Shown: one piece after another, positions 3,836 to 46,518 of the stretch
Position numbering within the stretch: the stretch's first letter is position 1
How the letters are laid out: each line of letters starts with the position of its first letter
NCBI GenBank assembly: GCA_045544255.1
Contig: JAZPYP010000072.1
Span: 41,764 to 105,763, forward strand
Direction: 5' to 3'
DNA length: 64,000 nucleotides
From: Eubacteriales bacterium
GTDB lineage: Bacteria > Bacillota > Clostridia > Oscillospirales > QAKW01
Notes under the pieces: generated by a model
The model's database searches: none
What the model was told of the DNA's origin: nothing
What the model saw: only the letters and a program-made list of their open reading frames with translations
Program-made: the position numbers and the translations under genes

Positions 3836-3870
3836 AAGGCACACTTCCCCCCCGGGGGGAAGTGTGCCTT
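3836..3870. terminator. bidirectional terminator (pepD / DUF4838 gene)
   Basis: Perfect long palindrome AAGGCACACTTCCCCCC/GGGGGGAAGTGTGCCTT flanked by an A-run and a T-run, between convergent genes. Confidence 0.8.
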
Positions 3871-3873
3871 ATT

Positions 3874-5655
3874 TTATTCAAAGATATACCACCGGTTCGG
3901 CGGGGCGGCATCGGTGCGGTTGGCAAGGGGGATCGCAATGCCATAACCCATATGATTGGCAAGGTAGCTATCAAAATGGGTTGCCATATAGGCAAGCTCA
4001 CCGGTCGGGTCTTCAAAGACCTTCGTCTTTATCCCTTTAAGGGAAACCGGATCGGTTACAGCAAGATGGCTATAGCGGAAGGCCATCCGCATCATCCGAA
4101 TATTATTGCGGGCGCGGGGATCCTCTGCTATCGCCAATGCTTCTTCAAAAAGGGCGTAGACCCTATCGGTATCGATCTGCTCGATCAGATATTTTCCGCC
4201 CTGATGGATAGACACCTGCCCCTCATAGGTCTGCTCATAGAGGGAAAGAAGCTCCTTTATTTTTGCGCCGCCCTTCCCGAAAAGGTGGGCAAAGCGCTCC
4301 ATCTGCTGCTCTACCGAAAGACCAATATCAAAGGCGGTGCGGGCAAAGCAATAAAAATTAAAGAGATTATTCCAATGATTAAAGCATTCGATCTGGGTGC
4401 CGCTCCCGCTCATGCCCCTCGCCTTCATGGCGGCAAAGATGCTCTGCATCTCATCGGCAGCGGGAACCACCCTTTGAGCATTTCCGTAGTTGCCCATATA
4501 GTATTCATAGGCCACCACATTTTTGGCAATCGCCCGATAGGCGAGGAGGTTTTCCTCATATTCGGTGCCGAGAAGATTTCCCCCATCCCTTTTTCCATAG
4601 GGGCGGAAGGTTTGGGTACACATGGCCATATCGATCAGCAGATGATCGGATAATCGGATCCCCTTTGGGCAATCCCAAAGATCCATATAAATCAGCGTAT
4701 CGATCCTGATATCCGGCCGCTCCTTTGCCATGCGGGCCGCAAGGGCGCTATTGAAATGAAGATAATTTTCGGTTTTGGTATAGGGAGCGCAGGCAGGGCA
4801 GCAGCAATCGTCGTCGCTCCCGTCGTTGGGCCAGAAGGCGATGGTATCCACCAAGGGGTTTTTCTCCAGCCAGCATAAGATATTGGCCGCCACCGCCTCA
4901 ACGCATTCTTCATTGCGGCTGCAAAGCAGCCATTGCCCATTATATAGCTTCTGATCGTCAGGAATGAACCGCCCGCCATCCGGCAGCATACGAAAATAGG
5001 CAGGATGGGCGGTGCGATAAGCGGTGGGGAACTGCGCACTGCCAAAGGGCGGCAAAAAGGTAAAGGTGGCCTGATGATGCCCCACGGTGAGGGAAAAGCC
5101 ACGCTTATAAAGCTCCTCCTCCAACCCCATCGCCTTCAGCTTTTCATAGCAGCTCACCCAGAGCAGAAGGCGATTATAGCGGTTTTTAGCCAGCCAATCA
5201 AAGAAGGGCAGAGTGAGCCCCCGATCGGCCTCCCCCGCCCATACATCGAATTGCACAATGGCAGTCCGATAAGGAAGATCGGCGGTATGGTCATAACCCT
5301 CCTCGGGCAGAGAAAGGGACTCGAGCTTTGGAATCATCTCCCCGATATTTTTATCGGGATGGGCCATTGCCCCAAAACAACAGCCCACATATCGCTCCAG
5401 AAATTCATAAACCCCATATAAAACGCTCCGTTCATTGCTGCCGGCAATGGTGATCCCCTTTTTAAAATCAAGGGAGATGCGCTCCCGCTCACCGAGAGAA
5501 GGATCCCACCGCAGCGCAATATCGATCCCTTTGCCCCGCTTCATCTGCAGGGCGCAATGGAGATAGCGCTCCAGCTCCTCTGCCGCAAAGGTCATCACAG
5601 GGGAGGCGGGATGGGAAAGGGAGAGGGTATAGCAATCCTTTTGAAAAATGATCAT
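3874..5655 (-). CDS. DUF4838-like putative glycoside hydrolase
   Basis: 593 aa with no signal peptide. N-terminal GH20/GH67-like region. Cys-rich DDDCCCPACAPY patch. Its ATG overlaps the nagA stop by 4 nt. Confidence 0.5.
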   Translation of the reverse strand: MIIFQKDCYTLSLSHPASPVMTFAAEELERYLHCALQMKRGKGIDIALRWDPSLGERERISLDFKKGITIAGSNERSVLYGVYEFLERYVGCCFGAMAHPDKNIGEMIPKLESLSLPEEGYDHTADLPYRTAIVQFDVWAGEADRGLTLPFFDWLAKNRYNRLLLWVSCYEKLKAMGLEEELYKRGFSLTVGHHQATFTFLPPFGSAQFPTAYRTAHPAYFRMLPDGGRFIPDDQKLYNGQWLLCSRNEECVEAVAANILCWLEKNPLVDTIAFWPNDGSDDDCCCPACAPYTKTENYLHFNSALAARMAKERPDIRIDTLIYMDLWDCPKGIRLSDHLLIDMAMCTQTFRPYGKRDGGNLLGTEYEENLLAYRAIAKNVVAYEYYMGNYGNAQRVVPAADEMQSIFAAMKARGMSGSGTQIECFNHWNNLFNFYCFARTAFDIGLSVEQQMERFAHLFGKGGAKIKELLSLYEQTYEGQVSIHQGGKYLIEQIDTDRVYALFEEALAIAEDPRARNNIRMMRMAFRYSHLAVTDPVSLKGIKTKVFEDPTGELAYMATHFDSYLANHMGYGIAIPLANRTDAAPPNRWYIFE

Positions 5656-8444: not shown

Positions 8445-8464
8445 AAAAGGAGCAAACTGTTCTT

Positions 8465-8522
8465 CCCTTTCCCCTTTGAGCGCACCTTTGAATTTTTAAA
8501 GGCTATCCTGGCAAAGTTATAA
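8465..8522 (+). pseudogene. relic copy of the last ~58 nt of pepD
   Basis: Aligns to 3761..3819 with 5 mismatches and one 1-nt indel, including the stop codon. It is followed by its own terminator. Confidence 0.75.
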
Positions 8523-11263: not shown

Positions 11264-11273
11264 AACCCTATTT

Positions 11274-11303
11274 GATATCATGGTATCATGATATCATAAT
11301 ATC
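11274..11303. repeat. TGATATCA octamer array, 4 degenerate copies
   Basis: GATATCA TGGTATCA TGATATCA TAATATC, read directly. Intergenic. Confidence 0.9.
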
Positions 11304-11705: not shown

Positions 11706-11731
11706 AAGATATCATGATATCATGATATCTT
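11706..11731. promoter_or_regulatory. 26-bp perfect palindrome (3 octamers) placed as the operator of the RHH gene
   Basis: AAGATATCATGATATCATGATATCTT starts 6 nt downstream of the -10 hexamer, covering the predicted transcription start site (TSS) and early 5' UTR. Confidence 0.6.
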
Positions 11732-11829: not shown

Positions 11830-11847
11830 TTGATATCATGATATCAA
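11830..11847. repeat. TGATATCA octamer array, 2 copies (18-bp perfect palindrome)
   Basis: TTGATATCATGATATCAA, 8 nt downstream of the APH stop codon. Confidence 0.9.
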
Positions 11848-25089: not shown

Positions 25090-25102
25090 TCTAAAATATC
25101 AA

Positions 25103-25139
25103 AAATCCCGAAATGCAACCTGCATTTCGGGATTTTTTT
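25103..25139 (+). terminator. pck terminator
   Basis: AATCCCGAAATGC-loop-GCATTTCGGGATT followed by TTTTTT. Confidence 0.85.
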
Positions 25140-25189
25140 ATCCTCTCGCCCTCAAATCATTTGGATCCTCACACTTTAATCCGCCAACC

Positions 25190-25453
25190 GCACAATTCAT
25201 TTGTGCACCTCAACCATTTCTACCTACCCGCACAAATCATTTGTACACCCCATCTCATTTCTGCGTAGCCGCACAATTCATTTGTGCACCCTAACTCATT
25301 TCTACGTAGCCGCACAAATCATTTGTACACCCTAACTCATTTCTGCGCAGCCGCACAATTCATTTGTGCACCCCATCTCATTTCTGCGCAGCCGCACAAT
25401 TCATTTGTGCGCCCTAACTCATTTCTGCGCAGCCGCACAAATGATTTGTGCGG
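25190..25453 (+). repeat. tandem array A: 8 copies of a 41-bp unit
   Basis: GCACAA starts at 25190, 25230, 25271, 25312, 25353, 25394 and 25435 (steps 40,41,41,41,41,41). Consensus GCACAATTCATTTGTGCACCCTAACTCATTTCTGCGCAGCC. Confidence 0.95.
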
Positions 25454-25509
25454 GTGGATTGATTTTTGAAGAAATTTATGTTATTCTTTAAAAAAAGGAT
25501 GTGATACAA

Positions 25510-25818
25510 ATGGATCAAGCAGTATTTGCACAGAGGTTAAAACAATTACGAGCACAAATGGGCGTCAGTCAGCATGAAATGAGCAAGAAATTAGGTCTTA
25601 CTCAAAACTACATCTTCAACATTGAATCCGGTTACGCCTATCCCTCCATGACCAATTTTTTTGCCATTTGTTCCTATTTAGACGTTACGCCGGAGGAATT
25701 TTTCTCCTTTGGAGAAAATCCCGATGACCAAGTACAGGAGCTTCTTTCCGTTACCCGCAATTTTTGCGGGGAAGACATGGCTCATCTGATTGATTACGCC
25801 ATCAAAATGAAATGGTGA
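25510..25818 (+). CDS. XRE-family helix-turn-helix protein
   Basis: FAQRLKQLRAQMGVSQHEMSKKLGLTQNYIFNIESG is a classic Cro/C1 HTH. The ATG at 25510 follows AAAGGA (GTG at 25501 also possible). Confidence 0.8.
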   Translation: MDQAVFAQRLKQLRAQMGVSQHEMSKKLGLTQNYIFNIESGYAYPSMTNFFAICSYLDVTPEEFFSFGENPDDQVQELLSVTRNFCGEDMAHLIDYAIKMKW

Positions 25819-25904
25819 AAGCTTTGCATAAACGCGTGTGCGTATTTTTAACCAAAAATAAATGAGATTTGGTTTCAAGTCAGACATTTTCGGAGAAAGA
25901 CACC

Positions 25905-26342
25905 ATGGATTATTCCGCTTTTGCAGATAAACTTACAAAATTCATTCCTCTCCCCATGACGGTTTTAGGCATCCTTTTTATTGGGTTGCTGATCTTTTTA
26001 TTCATTGCCTTGAAAATGAAATTTCTCAAGGAATCCTGGATTTATTTAGTCTGCGGTTTTATTGGGATTGTTTTGGCTTATTTCTTCACCATTTACCCCG
26101 TTCAGAAGGATATCCGGGAGAAAACCTATATCGAATATCACAGGAACTTTATTATTGACGAATATTACTTCACAAGTCGAAGCAGTTCTTCCACCATGAT
26201 GATTCGCTTTTCCCCATCCGAAAAAGCTGAAAAATTCAAAACCATTGAGGAATTTCACGAAATTACGCTGGGGAAAATTTATCAGGGAACCATCTGCTAC
26301 GGAAAACATTCGAAAATGATTATCGAAATAGAAATAAAATAA
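25905..26342 (+). CDS. hypothetical 2-TM membrane protein
   Basis: ATG at 25905. Two hydrophobic helices, then a ~80-aa soluble tail. AT-rich codon usage unlike its neighbours. Confidence 0.5.
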   Translation: MDYSAFADKLTKFIPLPMTVLGILFIGLLIFLFIALKMKFLKESWIYLVCGFIGIVLAYFFTIYPVQKDIREKTYIEYHRNFIIDEYYFTSRSSSSTMMIRFSPSEKAEKFKTIEEFHEITLGKIYQGTICYGKHSKMIIEIEIK

Positions 26343-26383
26343 AGATTTCTTTCAATCATGATATAAACTGCTTTTAGAGCTAC

Positions 26384-26415
26384 AGCCGCACTTTTTGATG
26401 CGGCTATTATTTTTG
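26384..26415 (+). terminator. terminator after XRE/membrane gene pair
   Basis: AGCCGCA-loop-TGCGGCT followed by ATTATTTTT. Confidence 0.55.
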
Positions 26416-26478
26416 CTTCAAAATCCGTTTTATCGGACTTTATCTATGATAAAATACCCCTAAGCAAAAAGGGTAGTG

Positions 26479-30239: not shown

Positions 30240-30275
30240 AAACCGCCGATGGAACATCGGCGGTTTGCTTTTTTA
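30240..30275 (+). terminator. pgsA terminator
   Basis: AAACCGCCGATG-loop-CATCGGCGGTTT followed by GCTTTTTT. Confidence 0.85.
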
Positions 30276-30300
30276 TTAAATCCCATCTTTTTACCTTCCC

Positions 30301-30895
30301 GCACAATTCATTTGTGCACCCTAACTCATTTCTTTGCCGCCACACAATTCATTTGTACACCCTAACTCATTTCTGCGTAGCCGCATAATTCATTTGTACA
30401 CCCTAACCCATTTCTGCGTAGCTGCACAATTCATTTGTGCACCCCAACCCATTTCTGCGCAGCCGCACAAATCATTTGTACACCCCCAACCCATTTCTGC
30501 GCAGCTGCACAATTCATTTGTACATCCTAACCCATTTCTGCGCAGCCGCACAATTCATTTGTACTCCCTATCCCATTTCTGCGCAGCCGCACAATTCATT
30601 TGTGCACCCTAACCCATTTCTGCCCAGCTGCACAATTCATTTGTGCACCCCAACTCATTTCTTTGCCGCCGCACAATTCATTTGTACACCCTAACCCATT
30701 TCTGCGCAGCTGCACAATTCATTTGTACACCCTAACTCATTTCTGCGCAGCCGCACAATTCATTTGTACACCCCAACTCATTTCTGCGCAACCGCACAAT
30801 TCATTTGTGCACCCCAACTTATTTCTGCGCAGCCGCACAATTCATTTGTGCACCCCAACTCATTTCTTTGCCGCCGCACAATTCATTTGTGCACC
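30301..30895 (+). repeat. tandem array B: 15 copies of the same 41-bp unit
   Basis: Unit starts at 30301, 30342, 30383, 30424, 30465, 30507, 30548, 30589, 30630, 30671, 30712, 30753, 30794, 30835 and 30876 (all steps 41 except one of 42). Same orientation as array A. Confidence 0.95.
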
Positions 30896-30951
30896 TGATT
30901 TCTTTGCAATGATCAACCCAAATCATTTGGGTTTTGGGGTGATTGACATTT

Positions 30952-30980
30952 TTTGAGGAGAGGTGTATACTTTTTGAGAA
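30952..30980 (+). promoter_or_regulatory. promoter of riboswitch-DUF4430 operon
   Basis: TTGACA - 17 nt - TATACT. Confidence 0.6.
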
Positions 30981-30986
30981 GCGAAG

Positions 30987-31290
30987 CTATGCTTTTCTTG
31001 GCAGGGCATAAATGCCTTGCCGCAAGGAAGAGGGGTGAGATTCCCCCGCGAACTCGTCGCCGTGATAGGTGAGGGTTCTCCCTGAAATGCCACTGAGGAA
31101 GCGATTCCTTGGGAAGGCGGGAGAAACCGCAATCAGCCTTCAGCCGGAATATTTGGAGCATAGAAAAATCCATAAGCTTGCTACGAGTGCTTAGCCTTTC
31201 AATAAGGGCTCTGCTGCCGGCAGAGGGCAGCGAAGGCTTTATGGGAAGCAGAAAAGGGCTTTTTGGATTTCCCGCTTTAGAAAATTTAAA
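30987..31290 (+). promoter_or_regulatory. cobalamin (B12) riboswitch leader
   Basis: Conserved cobalamin-riboswitch blocks in the expected order: GGGGTGAGATTCC, GCCACTG (31098..31104), GGGAAGGC (31120..31127) and a B12-box-like CAGCCGGAATATTTGG. The downstream genes are types commonly under B12 riboswitches. Confidence 0.65.
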
Positions 31291-31302: not shown

Positions 31303-31695
31303 ATGAGCAAAAAGCAAAAGCTGCTAACGATCGTTGGCGGCGTCATTCTGATTGCCCTTGCGGCAGTTGCTTTGCTCCTTTGGAATGGTTTCTCTGCCAA
31401 GCCGGAAGAAGGAAATAAGCAAATTACATTTGAACTGATCGATAAAGACGGCAGTTCTAAGGAATTCAGCATCAAAACCGATGCCGAATATTTGGCAGAT
31501 GCCTTGGTAGAGGAAAAGCTGATCACCTACGATAAAGGCGGCCTTTATACCACCATCAACGGCATCACCTGCGATTGGGAAAAAGACCAAGCCTATTGGG
31601 CCATTTCCATCGACGGGGAATATGCGATGGTTGGCATGAATGAGATTCCCATTAAAGATGGGGGACATTATGAAGCAACCTATACAAAAGGGTAA
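31303..31695 (+). CDS. DUF4430 (transcobalamin-like) membrane-anchored binding protein
   Basis: 130 aa with an N-terminal anchor and a DUF4430-like core (YWAISIDGEYAMVGMNEIPIKDGGHY). Confidence 0.6.
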   Translation: MSKKQKLLTIVGGVILIALAAVALLLWNGFSAKPEEGNKQITFELIDKDGSSKEFSIKTDAEYLADALVEEKLITYDKGGLYTTINGITCDWEKDQAYWAISIDGEYAMVGMNEIPIKDGGHYEATYTKG

Positions 31696-32176
31696 GGCCC
31701 TGCAGGATCTGACCGCTCTGGCGGTATTTGCGGCGCTATTGATCGCGGTGCAGGTGGGGCTTTCTTTTCTGCCAAATATAGAGCTGGTTACACTATTGAT
31801 TATTTTAATGACCAAGCGCTTTGGCTGGAAGAGCATGCTCTCTGTTTGGGTATTTGTTTTGGTGGAAGGGCTGATCTACGGAGTGCACATTTGGTGGATC
31901 AATTATCTTTATATCTGGCCCCTTTTGGTGATTTCAGTTTTGCTTTTCAAAAAGCTTGATCATCCCCTGCCCTTTGCAATTCTGGCGGGAGGCTATGGGC
32001 TGCTCTTCGGCACCCTTTGCTCCATTCCCTATTTTTTAACCGGCGGCCTTGGGGCAGGCTTTGGCTATATAATCAGCGGCATTCCCTTTGATCTGATCCA
32101 TTGCATCAGCAACTTTTTATTGGTGCTGCTTCTTTATAAGCCTCTGACCTTTACCTTAAATAAGATTCTGCATTAA
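31670..32176 (+). CDS. putative ECF-transporter S component (possible cobalamin-specific, CbrT-like)
   Basis: ~168 aa with 5-6 TM helices. ATG at 31670 after a GGGGGA SD, overlapping the DUF4430 end. Sits behind a B12 riboswitch. Confidence 0.45.
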   Translation: MKQPIQKGKALQDLTALAVFAALLIAVQVGLSFLPNIELVTLLIILMTKRFGWKSMLSVWVFVLVEGLIYGVHIWWINYLYIWPLLVISVLLFKKLDHPLPFAILAGGYGLLFGTLCSIPYFLTGGLGAGFGYIISGIPFDLIHCISNFLLVLLLYKPLTFTLNKILH

Positions 32177-34276: not shown

Positions 34277-36766
34277 TTATTCCTCAGCGGCAGTTTCTTC
34301 GGGTTCTGGCTCTTCTTCCTCTCTTGCGGCCAGCGCAATATCGATCACCTGCACCCCTTCTCCCATTCTTACCACGCGAACCCCTTGAGTGGAGCGGCCG
34401 AGAGTGGGAATTTCTTCGGTATGAGTGCGTATGATAATGCCGCCGGAGCTGATGGCCAGAAGGTCCTCGCCATCCTCAACCATCTTGATGGCTGCGATCT
34501 TGCCGGTCTTTTCGGTAACATTATAGTTGGTAATTCCCTTACCACCGCGGGTTTGCAGGCGATATTCTTCAAATTCTGTGCGCTTACCATAGCCGTTTTC
34601 GGTGATGGAAAGCAGATTTTTGCCCTCAACGGGAATTGCCATACCAATCAGATAATCTCCATCTTTCAGGCGAATGCCCCGCACACCCTTGGTGGCGCGG
34701 CCCATGCTCCGCACATCCTCCTCCGCAAAGCGGATGGCCTTACCCTCATGGGAGGCGAGCATAACCATATCCTCGCCGCTTGTACGCATTACTTCGATCA
34801 GATCATCATCCTCTTCCAATACAATAGCGATCACACCGCTCTTGCGGATATTGCTGTATTCAGAAAGGGGCGTCTTTTTCACAGTACCGTTGCGGGTGGC
34901 CATGATCAGATTGCCGCCTTGCTCGAAGCTTTCGATGCGGATCATGGCATTGACCTTCTCATCGCTCTCGATGGGCAGAAGATTAACCACATTAGTACCC
35001 TTGGCAACCCTGCTGCTTTCCGGCACTTCATAGCCCTTCAGGCGATAGACCCGCCCTCTGGTTGTAAAGAACAGAATGGTATCATGGGTAGAGGCAGAGA
35101 AGAGGCTCTTGACCACATCTTCTTCCTTGGTCTTCATACCGGTGATGCCTCTGCCGCCCCGATGCTGGGCTTTATAGGTATCCACTGTCTGCCGCTTGAT
35201 ATAGCCGGCTTCGGTAAGAGTAAAGATGCAATCTTCAACGGGGATCAGGTCCTCATCCTCCAGCCCGATCTCGCCATGGCCGATCTCGGTGCGGCGGTCA
35301 TCGCCGAATTTGCGGGCCACTTCCGAAAGATCGGTTTTCAAAATATCCACAACCCGATAATCGTTTGCAAGGATATCCTTCAGATCGGCAATTTTAGCGG
35401 AGATTTCTTTGTATTCATTCTCCAGCTTTTCCCGCTCCAGACCGGAAAGCTGACCAAGCTTCATATCAACGATCGCCTGCGCCTGAATTTCATCCAATTC
35501 AAACCGCGCCATTAATTTTTCTTTGGCATCGGCAATATGCTTACTGCCGCGGATAATGGCAATCACTTCATCGATATGATCGATCGCCTTCAGAAGACCT
35601 TCCAAAATATGGGCTCTGGCTTCCGCCTTTTTGATCTCAAAAGCGGTGCGGCGGCGGATAACCTCCTTTTGGTGGAGAAGATATTGCTCCAACATCTGCT
35701 TTAAGGAGAGAACCTTGGGCTCGCCGTTGACCAGCGCCAGCATGATTACCGAGCAGGTAACCTGCATATCGGTATATTTATAAAGCTGATTTAAGATCAC
35801 TTGGGGATTGGCCTCTTTTTTCAGCTCAACCACAAAGCGAAGGCCATCCTTATCGGTTTCATCCCGAATATCGGAGATGCCCTCGATGCGGCCGGTTTTT
35901 ACTTCATCGGCGATCTTTTCAATCAAAGCAGCCTTGCGCACCATATAGGGAATTTCATTGACTACGATTTTATAGCGGCCATCTCTCCATTCCTCGATCT
36001 CGGCTCTGGCCCGCACATAGATCTTGCCGCGGCCGGTGCGATAGGCATTGCGGATCCCGCTTCTGCCCATAATGATCGCGCCGGTGGGAAAATCAGGGCC
36101 TTTGATATATTCGCAAAGCTCATCCACATCCATTTCCGGATTATCCAGAAGAGCAACCGCGCCATCTACCACTTCTCTGAGGTTATGGGGCGGAATATCG
36201 GTAGCCATACCAACGGCAATACCGGAGGAGCCATTTACCAGAAGATTGGGGTATCTGGCGGGGAGAACCCGCGGCTCTTTTCTTGTTTCATCAAAGTTGG
36301 GATCCCAATCGATGGTATCTTTTTCAATATCCTTGAGCATCTCATTAGAGATCTTGCTCATTCTTGCCTCGGTATAACGATAAGCCGCGGCAGGATCACC
36401 GTCGATAGAACCAAAGTTGCCATGGCCATCTACCAAAGGATAGCGCAGGGAGAAGGGCTGAGCCAAGCGCACCAGCGCATCATAAACAGAGGCATCGCCA
36501 TGGGGATGATAGCGGCCCAATACATCGCCCACGCAGGTGGCCGATTTTCTGAAGGGCTTATCGCTGGTCAGATTGTCTTCATACATAGCATAAAGAATCC
36601 GGCGGTGCACAGGCTTCAGGCCATCGCGCACATCAGGAAGAGCGCGGCCGACGATAACCGACATGGCATAGTCGATATAGGAGGTTTTCATCTCCTTTTC
36701 CAGATCGACGGGGACAATATATTGATTTTCATAACTGCTGGTATCAAATTGATCATATTTAGCCAT
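34277..36766 (-). CDS. gyrA: DNA gyrase subunit A
   Basis: 829 aa. [16 protein letters not shown], and the active-site region AAYRYTE. Confidence 0.95.
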
Positions 36767-36783
36767 TTTTCACGCACCTCCTT

Positions 36784-38724
36784 TTATACATCAAGATTCA
36801 TCACATACTTGGCATTTTCTTCGATAAATGCCTTTCTGGGCTCTACCTTTTCGCCCATCAAAATAGAAAATGTCTGATCGGCGGCGATGGCATCGCCCAA
36901 TGTGAATTGCTTTAAGGTTCGGGTTTCGGGATCCATGGTGGTGGCCCAAAGCTCTTTGGCATCCATCTCACCAAGACCCTTATTGCGGCTGATCTCTACC
37001 TTGCCCTTGCCATCCTCGCCGCGGAGCTCTGCAGAGATTTTATCTCTTTCTTCATCGGAATAGGCATAGCGGGTTTCCTTGCCCTTCACTAATTTATAAA
37101 GGGGAGGCACCGCGGTATAAACATAGCCGCCTTCAATGAGGGGGCGCATAAAGCGGAAGAAGAAGGTCAGCAGAAGGGTGCGGATATGCGCACCATCCAC
37201 GTCCGCATCCGCCATGATAATAACCTTACCATAGCGCAGCTTTTCAATATCGAAATCGGCGCCGATATTAGTGCCCAGCGCGGCGATCACCGGCTGAAGC
37301 TTATCGTTATTATAAACCTTATCCAAGCGGGATTTTTCAACATTGAGCATCTTGCCCCAAAGGGAAAGGATCGCTTGGAAGCGGCGATCGCGGCCATCCT
37401 TGGCGGAGCCGCCTGCCGAATCTCCCTCTACGATATAGATTTCGCTATACTTGGTATCCTTGCTCTGGCAATCGGCCAGCTTACCGGGGAGGGAAAGAGA
37501 GGTGGAAAGGGCGCTCTTTCTTGCGCTCTCTCTTGCCTTTCTTGCCGCCTCTCTTGCCTGAGAGGCCGAGACTGCCTTGCTGATAATGGTTTTGGCAACC
37601 TTGGGATTTTCTTCAAAAAATTCGGTAAGCTTCTCGGTGATGATGGAGCTGACTAAGCCCCGCACCTCACTATTGCCCAGCTTGGTTTTGGTCTGGCCCT
37701 CAAATTGAGCCTCTTCCACCTTCACACTGATGATCACCGTTAAGCCTTCCCGCACATCCTCGCTGGAAAGGTTGGCATCCTTTTCCTTAAGATAATTATT
37801 TTTGCGGGCATAGGAATTGATCACATTGGTCATCGCCGCCTTAAAGCCGGTCTCATGGGTACCGCCTTCGGTGGTATTGATATCATTAGCAAAGGAGATG
37901 AGGGTTTCATCATATTTGGTGGTATATTGCATGGCGATCTCCGCCATGGAAGTGCCCTTCATCCCGCTTACATAGATGACCTCTTCATGGATCGGCTCCT
38001 TGCTCTTATTGAGATAAGTAACAAACTCGCGGATACCGCCCTCATAGCAGAGGTTCTTGCTCTTTTTATTCTCTTCATCTCGCAGATCTTCAAAAACAAT
38101 CCGAAGGCCTGCATTGAGAAACGCCTGCTCCCGCAGCCGCTTTAAGAGCACATCATATTCATATTCCAACGTTTCAAAAATCTGATCATCCGCCAAAAAG
38201 CGCACTTTGGTGCCGGTCTTTTCGGTTTCGCCTGTGATCTTCAATGAGCCGGTGGAATGGCCCCGCTCATAGCGCTGGGAATGGATCTTGCCATCATGGT
38301 GAACCTCTACCTCTAACCATTCGGAAAGGGCATTAACAACCGATGCGCCAACACCATGCAAGCCGCCGGAAACCTTATATCCGCCGCCGCCGAATTTACC
38401 GCCGGCATGGAGAATGGTAAAGACCACCTCAACAGTCGGAATTCCCATCTTGGGATGAATGCCCACAGGGATACCGCGGCCATTATCCTCCACTTCGATG
38501 ATATTGCCCGGCAAAATGCGCACACTGATGGTATCGCAATAGCCGGCCAGCGCCTCATCGATGGAGTTATCCACGATTTCATATACCAGATGATGAAGAC
38601 CGCGAATAGAAGTGGACCCGATATACATACCTGGGCGCTTTCTTACTGCCTCCAGCCCTTCCAATACCTGAATGGAAGATTCATCGTATTGGTTGGTTAC
38701 TTTTTGTTGATCCATTTTTTTCAA
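36784..38724 (-). CDS. gyrB: DNA gyrase subunit B
   Basis: 646 aa with GHKL ATPase, [21 protein letters not shown] and [11 protein letters not shown]-type motifs. Confidence 0.95.
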
Positions 38725-38760
38725 CTTTCCTTTCGTTACTTTCTTAATCAGAAAATGTTT

Positions 38761-39030
38761 TTATATATAAGAAATTTTTTTAATATAGTTGCAGCGTTTG
38801 AGCAAGGTTTGGGCGGAGATTTGGGAGATATAGACCACCACATCCATTCCCCAGTTGCATACGATGAAGGATTTTGGAATATCGGTGGCCACATTGATCA
38901 GCTTAAATTCCTTTTCCTTGGCCTTTAAAAAATCTCTTGTTCGCTTTGATACAGTGGCTTTATCCATATCAAAGATGCCGATAATATGCTCCTTTTTAAT
39001 GAGCACATCCTGCCCCAGATGGAGATACAC
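38761..39030 (-). CDS. DUF370 (RemB/YaaB-like) small protein
   Basis: GTG at 39030 gives VYLHLGQDVLIKKEHIIGIFDMD...YISQISAQTLLKR, a DUF370 pattern. Conserved position between recF and gyrB. The track start at 39186 overlaps recF. Confidence 0.6.
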   Translation of the reverse strand: MYLHLGQDVLIKKEHIIGIFDMDKATVSKRTRDFLKAKEKEFKLINVATDIPKSFIVCNWGMDVVVYISQISAQTLLKRCNYIKKISYI

Positions 39031-40129
39031 GCTCCCTTGCCACCTTTCCTTCTTTAATAAAAAATACTTTATCGCCTTTTTTACGGATCTTTCCAAGCTC
39101 GCAGGTGGAAAGCACTGTTTGATGCCCTTCCATGCGGGAAAAGATGAATTTTTGGCGATTGGCATCCAGTTCCGATAAAATATCATCCAGCAATAATACA
39201 GGGAAATGGCCGCACCTTTTTTTCACAACTTCGGCTTCTGCCAATTTCATTGCCAGAACCGCCGAGCGGATCTGCCCTTGAGAGCCGAAAAATTTCATGC
39301 TCTTTCCGGCAAGAAGGATCAAAATATCATCTTTATGCACCCCGCAAAGGGTTTGCCCCATGGCAAGATCCTGCTCCTGCATCCGCTCCAAGCGGGATAA
39401 AAATAATTCTTTATATTCCTGCTCGCTATGAGCATCTTTTGAAAATTGGTTCAGATAAATGAGCTTTAATTTTTCTGCGCCCTTCGAGATCTCGCCATAA
39501 AATTCCTTGGCATATTGATCCAGCTCCAAAAGATAATCCTGCCGCGCCTTTGCAATACAGGCCCCTGCTTCGGCAAGCTTTTCATTCCAGATAGAAAGCA
39601 TTTCCGCCAAGGAAGGGTTTTCTTTGCATTGGTTTAAAAGGGCATTTCGGTTTTTAATGATCTTTTGGTAATTTAAAAGCTGATCGGTATAATGAAGATC
39701 CAAGGAGCAAAGGGCCATATCCAAAAAATTGCGGCGCTTATTGGGCCCTTCTTTAATCAGATTAAGATGATCGGGCGTAAAGATCACCGATTGAAAATTA
39801 CCGAGCAGATCTCGGAGCCTTCCAACCACAAGCCCATTATAGCGGTATTCTTTAGGCCGATCTTTCTTAAAGAGGATCTGCAGCTGCTCCGCGCTGCCTT
39901 CCACTTCAAAATCCAATGTAATCGCCGCTTCTTCTTTTCCAAAGCGGATCAACTGCTCCTCTCTTTTTACCCGATAGCTTTTCAGGCAGGTGCAAAAATA
40001 GATGGCTTCGATGCAGTTTGTTTTCCCTTGGGCATTATTGCCCGCAAGAATATTGATTCCATCGTTAAAAGAAAGAGTGGTATCTTCAAAATTCCGAAAA
40101 TTTTCAAGCCTTAATGCTTTGATCTTCAT
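38996..40129 (-). CDS. recF: DNA replication/repair protein RecF
   Basis: MKIKALRLENFRNF, Walker A GNNAQGKTN, signature LLLDDILSELD. Confidence 0.9.
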   Translation of the reverse strand: MKIKALRLENFRNFEDTTLSFNDGINILAGNNAQGKTNCIEAIYFCTCLKSYRVKREEQLIRFGKEEAAITLDFEVEGSAEQLQILFKKDRPKEYRYNGLVVGRLRDLLGNFQSVIFTPDHLNLIKEGPNKRRNFLDMALCSLDLHYTDQLLNYQKIIKNRNALLNQCKENPSLAEMLSIWNEKLAEAGACIAKARQDYLLELDQYAKEFYGEISKGAEKLKLIYLNQFSKDAHSEQEYKELFLSRLERMQEQDLAMGQTLCGVHKDDILILLAGKSMKFFGSQGQIRSAVLAMKLAEAEVVKKRCGHFPVLLLDDILSELDANRQKFIFSRMEGHQTVLSTCELGKIRKKGDKVFFIKEGKVARERVSPSGAGCAH

Positions 40130-40335
40130 CTTACAATTTTAAATTCTTCATTCATAATCGAAAAAGAATCCTCTTCATAAAGCTTTTTGCCCTTCATCAG
40201 GCATACCTCACCATTGACCAAAACCTGCCCATCTAAAATCAGCAGCTTGGCATGGCCGCCGGTTTCTGCGATACCGCAAAGCTTCAAAGCATCGCAAAGG
40301 CGGATATATTCATCTTTAATTAAAAGCTTATTCAT
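40126..40335 (-). CDS. S4-domain RNA-binding protein (YaaA/RlbA-like)
   Basis: 69 aa. Conserved slot between dnaN and recF. S4-like GGHAKLLILDGQVLVNGE. Confidence 0.7.
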   Translation of the reverse strand: MNKLLIKDEYIRLCDALKLCGIAETGGHAKLLILDGQVLVNGEVCLMKGKKLYEEDSFSIMNEEFKIVR

Positions 40336-40338
40336 CTC

Positions 40339-41460
40339 TTATTCCTTCATTCGAAGAGGCAATACCAAGAAAAGATAATCCTCTTTATCCATAGGGCGCA
40401 AAATAATGGGCGCCAGATTGCTCTGCAGCTCGATCATGATCTCTTCATCATCGCAGGCGGCAAGAGCGGCCAGCATATATTTATAGTTGAAGCCGATCAC
40501 CATCTTTTCGGAAAATTCTTCGCATTCAATTGAATCTTCAAATTTACCGATATTGGAAGCGGTGGAAATATCAATATGATCAAAATCAAAGCTGCAGCGA
40601 ATGGGGCTGATAATGGAAGCATTGGCCATCAGGGAAGCCCGCTCGATCACCTTTTCAAAATCCCGCACATTGGTTTTAACGCGGAATTTATAATTTTTGG
40701 GGATCGCAGCCTTATAATCCAAAAATTCCCCTTCCAGCAAGCGGGAAACAAGCTGCACACTATCGTATTTAAAGGAAACAAAGCTTCCGCTATGGCGGAT
40801 CTCAATGGTCTCCTCTTCGCTATCGGGAAGGATCTTTAAAAGCTCATTCAGCGCGCGGGAAGGAATCACCACTTTAGAGAAATTTCCCTGCACCTGCTCA
40901 AAGGGTACCTTGCGGATCGCCAAGCGGAAATTATCCACTGCTACTGCAGAAATATTTCCCTCTTCCTTATTCAGCTCGAAAAGTACACCGGTTAAGATCG
41001 GCTTCAGATCGGTGATGGAAACGGCAAAAATAGTCTGCCGCACCATAGTTTTGAAATTGGAATAGGTCAGCACAATGCCATCCTCGCTGAGCACTCCGGG
41101 AAGCTCCGGAAAATTCTCATCGCTCATGCCGGTAATGGTAAAGTTGGAATTACCGCCGTTGATATGGGTCAGATAAGTTCTGTTATCTGCCTCAACAGTA
41201 ACGGTGCAGGAGGGCAATTTCCGAATGATATCGCCAAAGATGCGGGAATTTAAGATAATAACGCCCCGCTCGGTATCCTCGGCATCAATTTCATAAGAGA
41301 TCGAAATATTTTGGTCATAGGCGCTGAGCAAAACCTTGCCGCTATCGGAGATTTCAATTAAGATGCCTTCCAATGCGGGAATGGTGGATTTAGCGCTTGC
41401 TGCTTTGGATACAATATTGATGGCTTCATTGAGAACAGAACGGTCACAAGAAAATTTCAT
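40339..41460 (-). CDS. dnaN: DNA polymerase III beta sliding clamp
   Basis: 373 aa, three-domain beta-clamp pattern, immediately downstream of dnaA. Confidence 0.9.
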   Translation of the reverse strand: MKFSCDRSVLNEAINIVSKAASAKSTIPALEGILIEISDSGKVLLSAYDQNISISYEIDAEDTERGVIILNSRIFGDIIRKLPSCTVTVEADNRTYLTHINGGNSNFTITGMSDENFPELPGVLSEDGIVLTYSNFKTMVRQTIFAVSITDLKPILTGVLFELNKEEGNISAVAVDNFRLAIRKVPFEQVQGNFSKVVIPSRALNELLKILPDSEEETIEIRHSGSFVSFKYDSVQLVSRLLEGEFLDYKAAIPKNYKFRVKTNVRDFEKVIERASLMANASIISPIRCSFDFDHIDISTASNIGKFEDSIECEEFSEKMVIGFNYKYMLAALAACDDEEIMIELQSNLAPIILRPMDKEDYLFLVLPLRMKE

Positions 41461-41681
41461 AGCAGATCAGTCCTTTCTTTTCTTTCTTTGATGAAGTAGA
41501 TGTTGTTGGTCTGTGTAAAACAAGGAAAACTTCAGTTTTGCCCATGGGGGCGCTGAAATTGCCTTGTTAAATCGCTGTTGATTTGCAAAATAATTTTAAA
41601 AGGGATTGAACATTGTTATGTAAACAAATGTCCCCCTTGTTAAAACTGTTGAAAAAAATCTGTTAAATTCTGAAAAAACTG

Positions 41682-43046
41682 TTAATAGGATTTTTTGATA
41701 TTTTCAGTCAGCTCCGCAACAATTTTGGTAATATTGGGATCCTGCTTAATGGCATCTTCCAGCTGGCGGATATTATAAAGAACAGTGGTATGATTTTTTC
41801 CGCCCATTTCCTTGCCGATCTCCGGCAAAGAAAGATCGGTATTTTCGCGGATCATATACATAGCCATTCTTCTTGCCGGCATAATATCGCCGCTTCTCTT
41901 TTCCCCTTTGATCTGCTCGGGGGTAACATTATAATAGCGGCAAACATGGTCGATGATGGAGGCGGGAGTAACAGCATTTTTGGTATGATCCCAAACCACG
42001 GCTTCCATTGCGGTTTTGGCAAGGGCGATGGAAGGAGTTTGGCCCCAAAGGGAATTATAAGCTTTAAGCTTTTTAATGGTGCCCTCCAGCTCCCGAATAT
42101 TGGTTTTGATTTTTGAAGCGATCAGCTCGGTAACCTCATCGGAGATATTCAGGTTATAAAGCTTGGCCTTTCTTTTAATGATCGCCACTCTGGTTTCGTA
42201 TTCAGGGGGCTGCACATCTGCGATCAAGCCCATAGAAAAGCGGGATTGAAGCCGCTCTTCCAAAGTAACCAGCTCTTTGGGAGGCCGGTCGGAGGTTAAA
42301 ATAATCTGCTTCCCTGCTTCATAGAGGGCATCAAAGGTATGAAAAAGCTCCTCCTGAATGGCATTTTTACCGCTGATGAACTGCACATCGTCCATCAGCA
42401 GCATATCGGCCATGCGGTATTTATTTTTAAATTGCCGCTGGGCATTATGCTGAATGGCATCGATCAGCTCGCTGGTAAATTCATCGCCCTTCACATAGAG
42501 GATCTTCATCTCCGGATGCATCTCTTTGATCTTATTGGCAATAGCATTGATCAGATGGGTTTTGCCAAGGCCGCTATGGCCATAAAGGAAGAATGGATTA
42601 TAGGCCGAGGCGGGATTATTGGCAATGGCCAAGGCTGCTGCATGGGCAAATTCATTTTCCTTGCCGATAACGAAATTTTCAAAGGTCAGATTGCTTTTGG
42701 CATCAAAGGCTCTGAATTCCTGGTCTACCTGCTCCAGCATGGAGGAGGTTACCTCTTCATTCTTTTTTTGGGCCGCTTCGCGGAATCCGGGGGGCACTTC
42801 CTCTTCGGTCATCACCTTCATCTCAACATCAAAGCCGATGGAATCGGAAATAGCCTCTTCGATCTGGGTTTTATATTTTTTATCAATAATACTCTTTTGA
42901 AAAAGAGTTGACACGCAAAAATAAGCGGTATCGTTTTCCATTTTCATGGGAATCAGCAGCTTGATCCATGTTTCAAAAGAAGTGGAATTCAAATCATGCT
43001 CCAGCTTCATAAGCGCTTTATCCCAAACATCCTTAAATGATTGCAT
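41682..43046 (-). CDS. dnaA: chromosomal replication initiator DnaA
   Basis: 454 aa. Walker A GHSGLGKTHL, and a C-terminal DNA-binding helix region. Confidence 0.95.
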   Translation of the reverse strand: MQSFKDVWDKALMKLEHDLNSTSFETWIKLLIPMKMENDTAYFCVSTLFQKSIIDKKYKTQIEEAISDSIGFDVEMKVMTEEEVPPGFREAAQKKNEEVTSSMLEQVDQEFRAFDAKSNLTFENFVIGKENEFAHAAALAIANNPASAYNPFFLYGHSGLGKTHLINAIANKIKEMHPEMKILYVKGDEFTSELIDAIQHNAQRQFKNKYRMADMLLMDDVQFISGKNAIQEELFHTFDALYEAGKQIILTSDRPPKELVTLEERLQSRFSMGLIADVQPPEYETRVAIIKRKAKLYNLNISDEVTELIASKIKTNIRELEGTIKKLKAYNSLWGQTPSIALAKTAMEAVVWDHTKNAVTPASIIDHVCRYYNVTPEQIKGEKRSGDIMPARRMAMYMIRENTDLSLPEIGKEMGGKNHTTVLYNIRQLEDAIKQDPNITKIVAELTENIKKSY

Positions 43047-43200
43047 CTCTTATCCCCCTTTGTAGAAAACTTGTGCAAAACTTATAAGACAACAGTATTA
43101 CACCCTATTTTAACATAGATTTTTTTTAATTTCAATATCTATTTATATAATTATACTAATAATATAGTATCATTATTTAAATAAGGAGAGGAGGGAAAAT
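43047..43200. other. putative oriC segment with AT-rich unwinding region
   Basis: Position between divergent dnaA and the rpmH-side genes. ~80-nt very AT-rich stretch at 43107..43184. Only degenerate DnaA-box-like 9-mers (TTATCCCCC 43050..43058, TGTGCAAAA 43072..43080). Confidence 0.45.
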
Positions 43201-43204
43201 TATG

Positions 43205-43233
43205 TTGACAATATTTTTTTTTCGATATATAAT
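43205..43233 (+). promoter_or_regulatory. glyQS promoter
   Basis: TTGACA - 17 nt - TATAAT, both hexamers perfect, 33 nt before the ATG. Confidence 0.65.
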
Positions 43234-43265
43234 GAGTTTTTAGATAATAATAGGAGGGTGAACCT

Positions 43266-44648
43266 ATGAAAAATACAGAAAAAACAATGGAGCAGGTTGT
43301 AAATCTCTGCAAGAGCCGCGGCTTTGTTTATAGCGGCAGCGAAATCTACGGCGGCCTTTCCAATTCTTGGGATTATGGTCCTTTAGGGGTGGAGCTGAAG
43401 AACAATGTGAAGAAGGCTTGGTGGCAGAAATTTGTGCAGGAATCTCCCTATAATGTGGGCCTTGATTCCGCTATTATCATGAACCCCGAAACCTGGGTAA
43501 CCAGCGGCCATGTGGGCGGATTTTCCGATCCCTTGATGGATTGCAAGGAATGCCATGCCCGCCACAGAGCCGATAAGCTCATCGAGGATGATGGCGGCCA
43601 TGCCGAGGGCATGACCTTTGAGCAGATGGAAGAATATATCAGGGAAAAGGGCCTTGTTTGCCCCGATTGCGGCAAGGCAAACTTTACCGATATCCGCAAA
43701 TTTAACCTGATGTTTAAAACCTTCATCGGCGTTACGGAAGACGCTAAAAATGAGGTTTATCTGCGGCCGGAAACTGCCCAGGGCATCTTTGTAAACTATG
43801 CCAATATTCAGCGCACCACCCGCAAAAAGCTGCCCTTCGGTGTTTGCCAGATTGGTAAATCCTTCCGCAATGAGATCACTCCCGGCAACTTTGTTTTCCG
43901 CACCCGCGAATTTGAGCAGATGGAATGCGAATTCTTCTGCAAACCCGATACTGATCTGGATTGGTTCTATTATTGGAAAGATTTCTGCAAGAATTGGCTG
44001 ATCGCTCTTGGCATGAAGGAAGAAAATATGCGCCTGAGGGATCATGAGAAGGAAGAGCTTTCCTTCTATTCCAAGGCCACTACCGATATTGAATTCCTCT
44101 TCCCCTTCGGTTGGGGCGAGCTTTGGGGCATTGCCGACCGCACCAATTATGATCTTGGCCGCCATCAGGAAGCCAGCGGAAAATCCTTGGAATATTTCGA
44201 TCCCGAAACCAATGAGCGGTATATCCCTTATGTGGTGGAGCCCTCTTTGGGCGCCGATCGGGTGCTGCTTGCTTTCCTTTGCGATGCTTATGATGAGGAA
44301 GTTCTGGATGCAGAGAAGAATGATACCCGCGTTGTTTTGCGGCTGCATCCTGCGCTGGCGCCTGTGAAGGCGGCGGTTCTTCCCCTTTCCAAGAAGCTTT
44401 CCGATGCTGCAATGGAAAAGGTTTATAATGTGCTTTGCAAAGAATTCAATGTGGAATTCGATGATGCAGGCTCTATCGGTAAGCGCTATCGCCGGCAGGA
44501 TGAGATCGGCACTCCCTTCTCCATCTGCTATGATTTTGATAGCGAAGAGGATGGCTGCGTTACCATTCGTTTCAGAGATACCATGGAGCAAAAGCGGGTT
44601 AAAATCGAAGAATTGGTAGAATTTATCCGCAATAGTCTTAAATTTTAA
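43266..44648 (+). CDS. glyQS: glycine--tRNA ligase (class II, homodimeric type)
   Basis: 460 aa. N-terminus [24 protein letters not shown] and class II motifs. Confidence 0.9.
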
Positions 44649-44658
44649 ATAATTTTTG

Positions 44659-44687
44659 TTGACAAATTATGTTTACCAATATATAAT
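44659..44687 (+). promoter_or_regulatory. rpmH promoter
   Basis: TTGACA - 17 nt - TATAAT, both perfect. Confidence 0.7.
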
Positions 44688-44744
44688 GGATTGTGCTCAA
44701 AAATGATTTATGATATCGATGCGATATAAAAGGAGGATTGAAAA

Positions 44745-44879
44745 ATGGTTCGGACTTATCAGCCTAAGAAGCGCCAGAGAAGCAAAGTTCATGGCTTCAG
44801 AAAGAGAATGAAGACTGCTAACGGACAAAAGGTTTTGGCCAGAAGAAGGGCAAAAGGCAGAAAAAGATTAACTCACTAA
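44745..44879 (+). CDS. rpmH: 50S ribosomal protein L34
   Basis: Not in the ORF track (44 aa). My translation is [44 protein letters not shown], with AAGGAGG SD upstream. Confidence 0.95.
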
Positions 44880-44888
44880 ATGATAATG

Positions 44889-44919
44889 AAGGCCGCAAAG
44901 ATATTTTGTGGCCTTTTTT
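44889..44919 (+). terminator. hairpin/attenuator between rpmH and rnpA
   Basis: AAGGCCGCAAA-loop-TTTGTGGCCTT followed by TTTT. Confidence 0.6.
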
Positions 44920-44948
44920 ATTGAAGGAGAGCAGAAAAGAGATACGCA

Positions 44949-45266
44949 ATGAGAATCGAAAGCGTTAAAGAAAATGTGAATTTCAGGCGGGCTTATCATC
45001 AGGGGAAATCCTTTGTGGCCAAAGAAATGGTGGTCTATTGGAGAAAGAACCGCATGGGCAAAGAGCGATTGGGGATCACTGTCAGCAAAAAGCTGGGCAA
45101 TTCCCCAAAGCGCAATCGGGTCCGCCGCATCATTCGCGAGGCCATTCGGGCCAATCGGGAGATCTTACCCCGCGGCTGCGATATCATTGTTGTGGCAAGA
45201 AGCCGCGCTCTTTTTTGCAAAAGCACCGATCTTGCTAAAATTTTAAAGGAGCATTTTTCAGCGTGA
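44949..45266 (+). CDS. rnpA: ribonuclease P protein component
   Basis: 105 aa basic protein with the KLGNSPKRNRVRRIIRE RNR motif, after rpmH. Confidence 0.9.
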   Translation: MRIESVKENVNFRRAYHQGKSFVAKEMVVYWRKNRMGKERLGITVSKKLGNSPKRNRVRRIIREAIRANREILPRGCDIIVVARSRALFCKSTDLAKILKEHFSA

Positions 45267-45517
45267 GCAAACTGGAAAAAATCAGAAAAATCCTGATCCT
45301 GCCGATCTTGGCTTATCAGAAATGGATCTCTCCTTTATTTCCGGCAAGATGCAAATTTTACCCCACCTGCTCTGCATACGCCTCAACGGCGATCTTGCGC
45401 TACGGCATATTCATTGGCGGAGCCTTGGCCATCTGGCGCATTCTGCGCTGCAATCCATGGTCGAAGGGTGGAATCGATCCGGTTCCGGATCAACTTTTTA
45501 AAAGGAGAAAAAAATGA
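45263..45517 (+). CDS. yidD: membrane protein insertion efficiency factor YidD
   Basis: YQKWISPLFPARCKFYPTCSAYA signature. GTG start overlapping the rnpA stop. Confidence 0.85.
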   Translation: MSKLEKIRKILILPILAYQKWISPLFPARCKFYPTCSAYASTAILRYGIFIGGALAIWRILRCNPWSKGGIDPVPDQLFKRRKK

Positions 45518-46509: not shown

Positions 46510-46518
46510 GGATAAATT

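Follow-up and report, generated by a model that had tools for sequence, protein, structure and literature searches.

We analyzed a 64-kb stretch of DNA from a Eubacteriales bacterium (contig JAZPYP010000072.1, positions 41,764 to 105,763; here called the window) and found that it carries two tandem arrays, A and B, built from the same 41 bp palindrome-bearing unit. Comparative sequence analysis leads us to regard both arrays, with fair but not high confidence, as tandemly amplified operator sites for the 102-residue XRE-family regulator encoded next to array A, a small protein with a helix-turn-helix (HTH) domain. Operator sites of transcription factors are a known kind of element, and what would be new here is that they occur as conserved tandem arrays that vary between strains. 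In bacteria, a transcription factor usually works through a single operator or a few, and this regulator clade is consistently preceded by 4–16 tandem copies of its presumed operator, in a number that differs between strains. If the extra copies matter, the arrays would be a natural case of regulation by binding-site number, whether through cooperativity, local concentration, or titration, a principle known mainly from synthetic lacO/tetO arrays, plasmid centromeres (sopC), and eukaryotic promoter variable-number tandem repeats (VNTRs). They also offer a protein–site pair that can be tested directly and that seems to come in specificity variants (CAC, CCC, and ACC flanks), which would make it useful for work on the evolution of HTH specificity. 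We searched the accessible literature for operator arrays tied to this XRE clade, for the core motif, for XRE genes combined with tandem repeats, and for intergenic minisatellites, and found no description of the arrangement.

Two arrays of a 41 bp unit

Array A lies between the terminator of pck and the promoter of the XRE gene (Table 1). The initial annotation, made from the sequence alone, had counted eight copies of a 41 bp unit there. Tandem Repeats Finder (TRF) reported a repeat at 25188–25451 with the same period, 6.5 copies, 88% matches, and a score of 381, and the count of eight is defensible in that we found eight core sites (starting at 25153, 25193, 25233, 25274, 25315, 25356, 25397, and 25438, with spacings of 40, 40, 41, 41, 41, 41, and 41 bp). 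The array consists of a degenerate leading unit, six full units, and a terminal palindrome. The motif GCACAANNCATTTGT, with at most one mismatch allowed, occurs 23 times in the window (0.13 expected), and its 11-nt dyad core, CAAWTSAWTTG, has 23 exact matches (0.61 expected), every one of which falls within array A or array B. Array A is real and lies far above chance.

Several features ascribed to the unit by the initial annotation needed revision. The final palindrome, described there as 9-3-9, is indeed perfect (10-1-10) and ends 5 nt before the TTGATT hexamer at 25459, as had been proposed. The inverted repeat said to be held by each unit is a perfect 6-5-6 repeat in only four of the six full array A units, in 10 of the 20 units of the window, and in 2 of 12 units of a sister strain. 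The division of the unit into halves of about 20.5 bp, recurring every two helical turns, did not hold: the sub-repeat TCATTT recurs at 18 and 23 bp, and TRF gave sub-periods of 23 and 18. The putative promoter that follows the palindrome is weak and scored under the threshold of our consensus scan.

Array B, which the earlier description of array A had not connected with it, is made of the same unit on the same strand and includes approximately 16 sites over 30299–30934 when its closing palindrome is counted. That palindrome, AACCCAAATCATTTGGGTT, has the CCC/GGG flank type, like the XRE operator of the relatives in L046 and L047. Spacer variants such as ...TTTGCCG and ...CTACCCAC are common to arrays A and B. 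Array B precedes a strong promoter, a cobalamin riboswitch, and the genes for a DUF4430 protein and a membrane protein. In related genomes this operon promoter has no sites: L080 and L083 have a site-free promoter of their own, and there are none in L034 either. Array B is thus specific to the species of the window, and we ruled out a conserved control of the cobalamin operon by the XRE protein.

We compared the arrays with independent assemblies of the same species, whose flanks are 97–98.7% identical to those of the window. The assembled sequence L031 spans pck to pgsA, and its array A contains nine full units and an identical terminal palindrome; the ends of other sequences fall in the arrays, L013 and L033 starting within array A or at the palindrome that closes it, and L013, L032, and L031 stopping within array B. 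The arrays are therefore not an artifact of one assembly, a concern raised when array A was first described. Array A has six full units in the window and nine in L031, and the corresponding array of a related species has 7.7 units in L034/L035 and 9.7 in L036–L039, although exact copy numbers drawn from short-read assemblies are uncertain. Unit number and order vary between strains while the flanks stay conserved, which, together with the spacer variants common to the two arrays, fits recombinational turnover. Because copy number differs between strains, the arrays can be called VNTRs or minisatellites, a descriptive term that is silent on function. In six of the sequences we examined (L013, L031, L032, L033, L040, and L080), the start or the end falls within an array, and many members of the XRE family lie on contigs of 0.5–2 kb. 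The arrays thus break short-read assemblies and are probably under-reported in metagenome-assembled genomes.

Of this genome, we inspected the 64-kb window, in which 53 open reading frames (ORFs) were scanned against Pfam. The scan found no cas, Rep, Par, or Fur-family genes and no gene for a RAYT (the IS200/IS605-type Y1 transposase associated with REP elements) among these ORFs, and restriction-modification (R-M) genes were likewise absent nearby. These results, with the anatomy of the units, bear on several classes of repeat. As first noted, the arrays do not belong to the clustered regularly interspaced short palindromic repeats (CRISPR): the part of the unit that would correspond to a spacer is conserved as well, with inter-palindrome positions 22–41 being 67–100% identical over 30 units. 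Nor do they encode a protein repeat, since the period is not a multiple of 3, the plus-strand units hold TAA stops (in CCTAAC), and the ORFs within array B are short, frame-hopping artifacts. Plasmid or phage iterons, which are direct repeats of 17–22 bp adjoining a rep gene and an AT-rich or DnaA-box region, were rejected because there is no rep gene, the units are 41 bp long and dyad symmetric, and array BLASTN searches of plasmid and phage collections gave no match. The view that the unit belongs to no described repeat family agrees with our searches of Rfam, of the phage and plasmid collections, and of the accessible literature; no Rfam family reached its gathering threshold, and the best match by E-value scored 22 bits against a cutoff of 175 bits.

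Arrays upstream of related XRE genes

The proposal that the arrays form a regular lattice of protein-binding sites, with the neighboring XRE protein as the candidate binder, was strongly backed by comparative genomics. We placed nine relatives with at least 48% identity in their genomic context (P0002, P0010, P0011, P0012, P0013, P0014, P0016, P0017, and P0074). All nine have a tandem array directly 5′ of the XRE gene, with a period of 39–47 bp and approximately 4–11 units, and each unit bears a palindrome with a CAAAT(C/G)ATTTG core (Table 1). We found no arrays or core sites at 12 distinct farther relatives with 25–47% identity (P0015 and 31 viral-contig loci). The difference between nine of nine close and none of 12 distant relatives gives p = 3.4e-6 by Fisher's exact test, a value that is not corrected for phylogeny and overstates independence because the nine proteins form one clade.

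The palindrome core alone is conserved in every lineage pair. The fraction of matching spacer positions drops to 0.27–0.6 outside sister lineages, and a few related pairs retain 0.65–0.86; site-to-site spacing is 40–44 bp in six lineages and 39–47 bp in the others. The position of the last site is also kept. Its center lies 15–16 bp upstream of a TTGATT or TTGACA −35 hexamer at all seven loci measured, and it is a perfect 21 bp palindrome (10/10) at five of the six loci scored, where the array units have 6–9 of 10 arm matches. The promoter-proximal palindrome of L080 is also perfect, with 13 bp arms. The layout of array A, with its terminal palindrome, recurs at six further related loci, and we presume that this 21 bp palindrome is the primary operator. 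In L034–L036, the XRE gene is inverted relative to recA when compared with the window, and the array is still 5′ of it, which indicates that array and gene behave as one module.

The main rival to the operator-array reading, to which we assign a low but not negligible probability, is that only the promoter-proximal palindrome is functional and that the other units are a neutral minisatellite, seeded by the operator (for instance, through slippage or a template switch where a protein is bound or the DNA is palindromic) and homogenized by unequal crossing-over. Such an origin would suit the contrast between imperfect array units (6–9 of 10 arms) and a perfect terminal site, the freedom of copy number and unit order to differ between strains that are 97–98% identical, and a period that is unfixed across lineages (39–49 bp), and the spacer variants that arrays A and B have in common are as expected from recombinational homogenization. 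If the upstream units were neutral, however, loss or decay would be expected in some lineages, whereas arrays of at least four units are present at all nine clade members, down to 48% protein identity. Moreover, the core is intact in nearly every unit though the spacers are mostly unrelated between lineages, and arrays are found at other promoters too.

We then considered the regulator itself. An AlphaFold model of the protein (mean predicted local distance difference test score, pLDDT, 90.5) has an HTH domain of five helices, with two further helices at the C terminus. By sequence and by fold, C.BclI and C.AhdI, both controller proteins of R-M systems, have the closest HTH domains among solved structures. 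SinR (1b0n_A) and the C. difficile protein 3ivp are among the full-length fold matches; sequence similarity to SinR is confined to the HTH domain. The modeled layout is compatible with dimerization or tetramerization. Close relatives are few (a search with the one sequence gave seven proteins at E <= 1e-5), and a profile search returned a large family of proteins of approximately 101–103 residues. All array-linked proteins have the predicted recognition helix Y[IV][FY]NIE, and the array-less majority of the family has YINNIE. Twelve further proteins with the Y[IV][FY]NIE helix (P0018–P0021, P0030, P0034, P0038, P0041, P0053, P0077, P0109, and P0111) are predicted members of the clade. P0014 and P0017 have LADSY.FNIE in common and also the same 21-nt site, and the TQN, TKN, THN, or TEN variants accompany CAC or CCC flanks. 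The flanks of the sites co-vary in part with the recognition helix.

This co-variation bears on whether a different conserved protein, most plausibly one of the Fur family (Fur, Zur, or PerR), binds the arrays, with the XRE gene as target and not as binder. The AAAT-N-ATTT dyad core matches boxes of that family, which are 7-1-7 dyads centered on AAT-N-ATT. The motif of the Zur-like Fur_1691 of C. thermocellum, TGCAAATcATTTGCA, contains the identical 11-nt core CAAATCATTTG (PMC8457756), and the same core is present in the operator crystallized with Magnetospirillum Fur, TTGCAAATCATTTGCAA (PMC4506495), though neither paper describes tandem arrays of this kind. We nonetheless consider a Fur-family binder highly improbable, because the core flanks differ between close relatives (GCAC, ACAC, ACCC, CCCC, and TACC), partly tracking the XRE helix, and such change would be surprising if a conserved Fur-family protein were the binder. 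The arrays are found upstream of this XRE clade only, no fur gene is among the ORFs scanned in the window, and the flanking genes have no evident link to metal homeostasis, the cobalamin operon excepted.

Related sites also occur away from the XRE genes. Two other species have arrays in the region upstream of Na/Ala-symporter genes (a second one in L080, at 3666–4173, and one in L008, at 227–538), and the units of these arrays carry two different palindromes (for example, TACCAAATGATTTGGTA and GCACAATATTTTTGTGC in L080, and GCACAATTCATTTGTGC and ACACAATTTAATTGTAC in L008). The symporter gene of L008 is separated from the array by a terminator-like hairpin, a promoter, and a glycine riboswitch. 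In a third species, one perfect palindrome stands alone at the equivalent place (L083, 8986–9006), and a pair of adjacent sites occupies another intergenic region of L040. Taken together, the sites at other promoters are more suggestive of the small regulon of a transcription factor than of a system for chromosome partition.

We also scanned more widely. An exact search for the 19-mer GCACAAWTCATTTGTRCAC in 185,579 species genomes returned 11 matches, of which nine were isolated and at chance level (base composition alone predicts ~17); two adjacent sites were present in L005, and L008 was the sole match with a related array (49 bp). A paired-site pattern gave 15 matches in Joint Genome Institute (JGI) metagenomes, all in unrelated repeats, and four patterns searched in viral contigs gave nothing related. 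In L007, a metagenome-assembled genome of Acidobacteriota, three consecutive 21/42 bp tandem arrays (390–818) start with TGCACAAA-type units; the likeness to the unit of the window is probably due to chance, and the 21/42 bp organization is notable.

Table 1. Features of the array A and array B regions of the window, and arrays upstream of XRE genes in the nine relatives (percentages, protein identity to the XRE regulator of the window)
Feature	Location	Strand	Details
pck terminator (GTP-type phosphoenolpyruvate carboxykinase)	25101..25137	+	hairpin then T-run; upstream border of the intergenic region; pck by Pfam PF00821/PF17297
Degenerate leading unit of array A	25148..25187	+	core site CAAATCATTTG at 25153–25163; palindrome arms match 6/10; kept in strain L031
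Six full units of array A	25188..25432	+	40–41 bp; each an imperfect palindrome CCGCACAAWTCATTTGTRCAC (arms 7–8/10) plus spacer CCYWACTCATTTCTNNNNNN
Terminal palindrome of array A	25433..25453		CCGCACAAATGATTTGTGCGG, 21 bp; perfect 10-1-10; center 25443, 16 bp before −35 hexamer
Putative XRE-gene promoter	25459..25487	+	TTGATT, 17-nt spacer, TATTCT; position and sequence kept in L048, L046, L047, L036
XRE-family HTH regulator gene	25510..25818	+	102 aa; Pfam HTH_3 E = 1.9e-15; identical to protein P0002; presumed array binder
pgsA terminator hairpin	30240..30266	+	upstream of array B
Array B	30299..30895	+	14.5 copies of array A's 41 bp unit, same strand (15 sites; TRF)
Promoter-proximal palindrome of array B	30916..30934		AACCCAAATCATTTGGGTT, near-perfect; closes array B; center 30924, 19 bp before −35 hexamer
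Promoter of cobalamin-riboswitch operon	30943..30971	+	TTGACA, 17-nt spacer, TATACT; 11/12 consensus match; strong
Cobalamin riboswitch	30979..31170	+	Rfam RF00174, 58.9 bits; begins 8 nt past the promoter
DUF4430 gene	31303–31695	+	led by the cobalamin riboswitch; Pfam
178-aa membrane-protein gene	31640–32176	+	after the cobalamin riboswitch; Pfam
Array at P0002 (100%)	window and L031		period 41 bp, 6–9 units; palindrome GCACAAWTCATTTGTRC
Array at P0010 (86%)	L048		40 bp, units partial; palindrome like that of the window
Array at P0011 (84%)	L046, again right after pck		42–44 bp, 7 units; ACCCAAATGRTTTGGGT
Array at P0012 (80%)	L047		43–44 bp, 4 sites; CCCCAAWTSATTTGGGG
Array at P0013 (70%)	L034–L039		43 bp, 7.7–9.7 units; ACACAAATGATTTGTGT
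Array at P0016 (54%)	L080		46 bp, >10.7 units; CCCCAAATCATTTGGGG
Arrays at P0074 (52%)	L082		46 bp and 39 bp, 3.7 and 4.6 units; GCCCAAATGAATTGGGC and TACCAAATGAATTGGTA
Array at P0014 (50%)	L040		42 bp, >5.8 units; TACCAAATCATTTGGTA
Array at P0017 (48%)	L083		41 bp, 8.4 units; TACCAAATCATTTGGTA

Possible modes of action of the arrays

How might amplified operators work? One dyad-symmetric site per unit (a CAAAT-N-ATTTG core whose flanks differ by species) would suit a dimer of the HTH protein. The promoter-proximal perfect palindrome, centered at approximately −51, would abut the region bound by RNA polymerase and could serve as the primary autoregulatory operator. The 6–15 upstream copies, spaced 40–41 bp center to center, would be weaker, imperfect sites that load further dimers, and these dimers could contact one another via the two C-terminal helices, in a SinR-like layout. 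Such loading might build up a higher-order complex cooperatively or might instead act locally as a sink for regulator molecules, and unequal recombination or slippage, by altering unit number, would re-tune the system between strains. Binding, the sign of regulation, and the cooperative or titrating role of the extra copies are what we infer here. A broader and more tentative proposal, which we consider less likely than not, is that this small-XRE clade of Oscillospirales-type Clostridia uses amplified, strain-variable arrays of its own operator as an evolvable regulatory device, either a cooperative scaffold or a threshold-setting sink; in its boldest form, the arrays would be origin-proximal, sopC-like chromosome-organizing sites with a binder that is not ParB.

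A number of points weigh against the arrays being operators of the XRE protein. The support throughout consists of co-localization and co-variation, and, as the nine array-linked proteins make up one clade, the association may reflect one evolutionary event. The specificity code is imperfect, in that P0012 has the TQN helix of the window protein but a CCCC-type site, and the core also resembles Fur-family boxes, as described above. Neighboring sites do not keep a strict helical phase, since the period differs among lineages, from 39 to 49 bp. Array B and the L008 array do not adjoin an XRE gene, and our view of this genome is limited to 64 kb.

In their regulatory logic, the arrays resemble the autoregulated operators of Cro/CI-type factors and C proteins; as in those systems, an HTH_3 protein is found with a dyad-symmetric site at its own promoter. 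The R-M controller (C) proteins autoregulate at palindromic operators just upstream of their own promoter, and their C-boxes comprise two adjacent dimer sites. C proteins (C.BclI, C.AhdI, and C.Esp1396I) are the closest solved relatives of the XRE HTH domain, but the arrays have 4–16 units at approximately 41 bp, and the XRE protein has two extra C-terminal helices. We rejected assignment to an R-M C-box system, in which the C gene belongs to a restriction-modification operon, because no R-M genes lie nearby, there are 8–16 sites rather than two, and the similarity is in the HTH domain only. SinR of Bacillus subtilis likewise combines an XRE-type HTH with a short, helical C-terminal oligomerization domain, and SinR tetramers bind several sites at target promoters. 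Its sites, however, are a few 7 bp motifs and not long, regular tandem arrays, and no SinI-like partner gene is evident for the XRE protein.

In architecture, the closest analogy is the F-plasmid sopC, in which a unit of approximately 43 bp is directly repeated 12 times and every unit has one 16 bp inverted repeat that binds one dimer of the HTH protein SopB (PMC3177203). Period, copy number, and the single palindrome per unit match the arrays (41 bp, 8 and 16 sites). The arrays might accordingly be imagined as a sopC-like centromere, or as chromosome-organizing sites near the origin, with the XRE protein as site binder. The window contains the replication-origin region: dnaA, dnaN, recF, gyrB, and gyrA are on the minus strand at 34–43 kb, rnpA, yidC, jag, mnmE, mnmG, and rsmG are on the plus strand (together spanning 34277–47358 and 51969–56234), and the cumulative GC-skew minimum is at approximately 40–42 kb. 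Arrays A and B sit 11–18 kb from dnaA, and noc, parA, and parB do not follow rsmG within the window, where genes for an AraC regulator, an Na/Pi cotransporter, and a fucosidase are found instead. No DnaA-box cluster is evident near the arrays, and no clear one was seen in the origin region.

Despite this geometry, we think a centromere very unlikely. sopC works with the SopA/SopB (ParA/ParB) partition operon, whereas we found no CbiA/ParA, ParM, TubZ, or ParB domain in the window or, for eight other lineages, next to the XRE gene, and this gene has no conserved partner gene in any lineage. The presumed binder is a 102-residue Cro/CI-type HTH protein and not ParB. The proximal site is fixed at 15–16 bp from the −35 hexamer, as expected of a transcription factor, and this points to transcription control. 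Proximity to the origin in the window, L031, and L034–L039 follows from shared synteny, and L040, L080, L082, and L083 have nothing placing them near an origin.

Least probable of all, in our estimation, is action through nucleic-acid structure, be it RNA or DNA hairpins (as REP/BIME-like stabilizers of mRNA, as processed RNA, or as cruciforms) or curvature. Whole-array folds are far more stable than those of shuffled sequences (z = −9.8 on the plus strand and −6.8 on the minus strand), but such scores are a trivial product of tandem quasi-palindromes, which pair with each other. At the level of the single unit, the description of the repeat as hairpin bearing does not survive as a functional label. 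Units of the GTGCAC type form a DNA hairpin of −5.3 kcal/mol, and units of the GTACAC type show no significant fold (z = −0.3). Position 18 is G in 11 of the 30 units and A in 19, and its partner, position 4, is an invariant C, so that the stem is broken, without compensation, in at least half of the units and is not maintained. We rejected a function as RNA or as a hairpin on the absence of covariation and on the position of both arrays, which follow strong terminators and precede the next promoter.

The intrinsic curvature predicted by the initial annotation was not supported either. In a wedge-model trajectory, the curvature of arrays A and B did not exceed that of the genomic background or of shuffled-unit arrays (end-to-end/contour ratios of 0.92–0.94; local curvature of 4–5 degrees per turn, compared with ~7.6 in the flanks), a result that is indicative only. 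The arrays do resemble elements of the REP/BIME (repetitive extragenic palindrome/bacterial interspersed mosaic element) and MIRU (mycobacterial interspersed repetitive unit) VNTR types in being intergenic, imperfectly palindromic, and copy variable, and in lying between a terminator and the next promoter. They differ in that all units have the same orientation, the 23 core sites are confined to two tandem loci in 64 kb, and no RAYT gene is present in the window; moreover, they go with a single regulator clade in different species, with the palindrome core alone conserved. REP/BIME elements are dispersed in many extragenic copies, often of alternating orientation, and in copy distribution and orientation the arrays do not fit them within these 64 kb.

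Other features of the window

The XRE gene is followed by a small membrane-protein gene, recA, recX, rimO, pgsA, the pgsA terminator, and array B. One strain lacks the small membrane-protein gene (L013 419–814, compared with 25820–26458 of the window), which indicates that it is not a conserved partner of the XRE regulator. In three assemblies of the same species (L012, L014, and L015), an IS3-family element lies inside the pgsA terminator hairpin, just upstream of the start of array B; in L012 it occupies 3767–5300, equivalent to approximately 30251 of the window, and its genes carry rve and HTH_Tnp_1 domains. A related species has lexA between a PsbP-like gene and rsmA (L035 16461–17069), at a place equivalent to 22367 of the window where the species of the window has no gene.

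Other repeats were seen elsewhere in the window. The region between mnmE and mnmG (53469–53619) has four AT-rich inverted repeats (GTTATAAATATAAATTTTTATAAC type) at intervals of approximately 43 bp (43 bp × 3.4 by TRF); these may represent another kind of protein-binding array, similar in period but unrelated to arrays A and B. A triple 8 bp repeat, TGATATCA ×3 (for example, TTTTGATATCATGATATCATGATATCAAAA), occurs at 11273–11303, 11708–11729, 11831–11846, 47418–47441, and 57242–57265. Several of these sites adjoin genes for glycoside hydrolases or AraC-type regulators, and the repeat is probably the binding site of another regulator. Finally, a 62-nt direct repeat ending in TAA, with 85% identity between its copies, is present at the 3′ end of an M20-peptidase gene (3758–3819) and just past an AraC-family gene (8461–8522).

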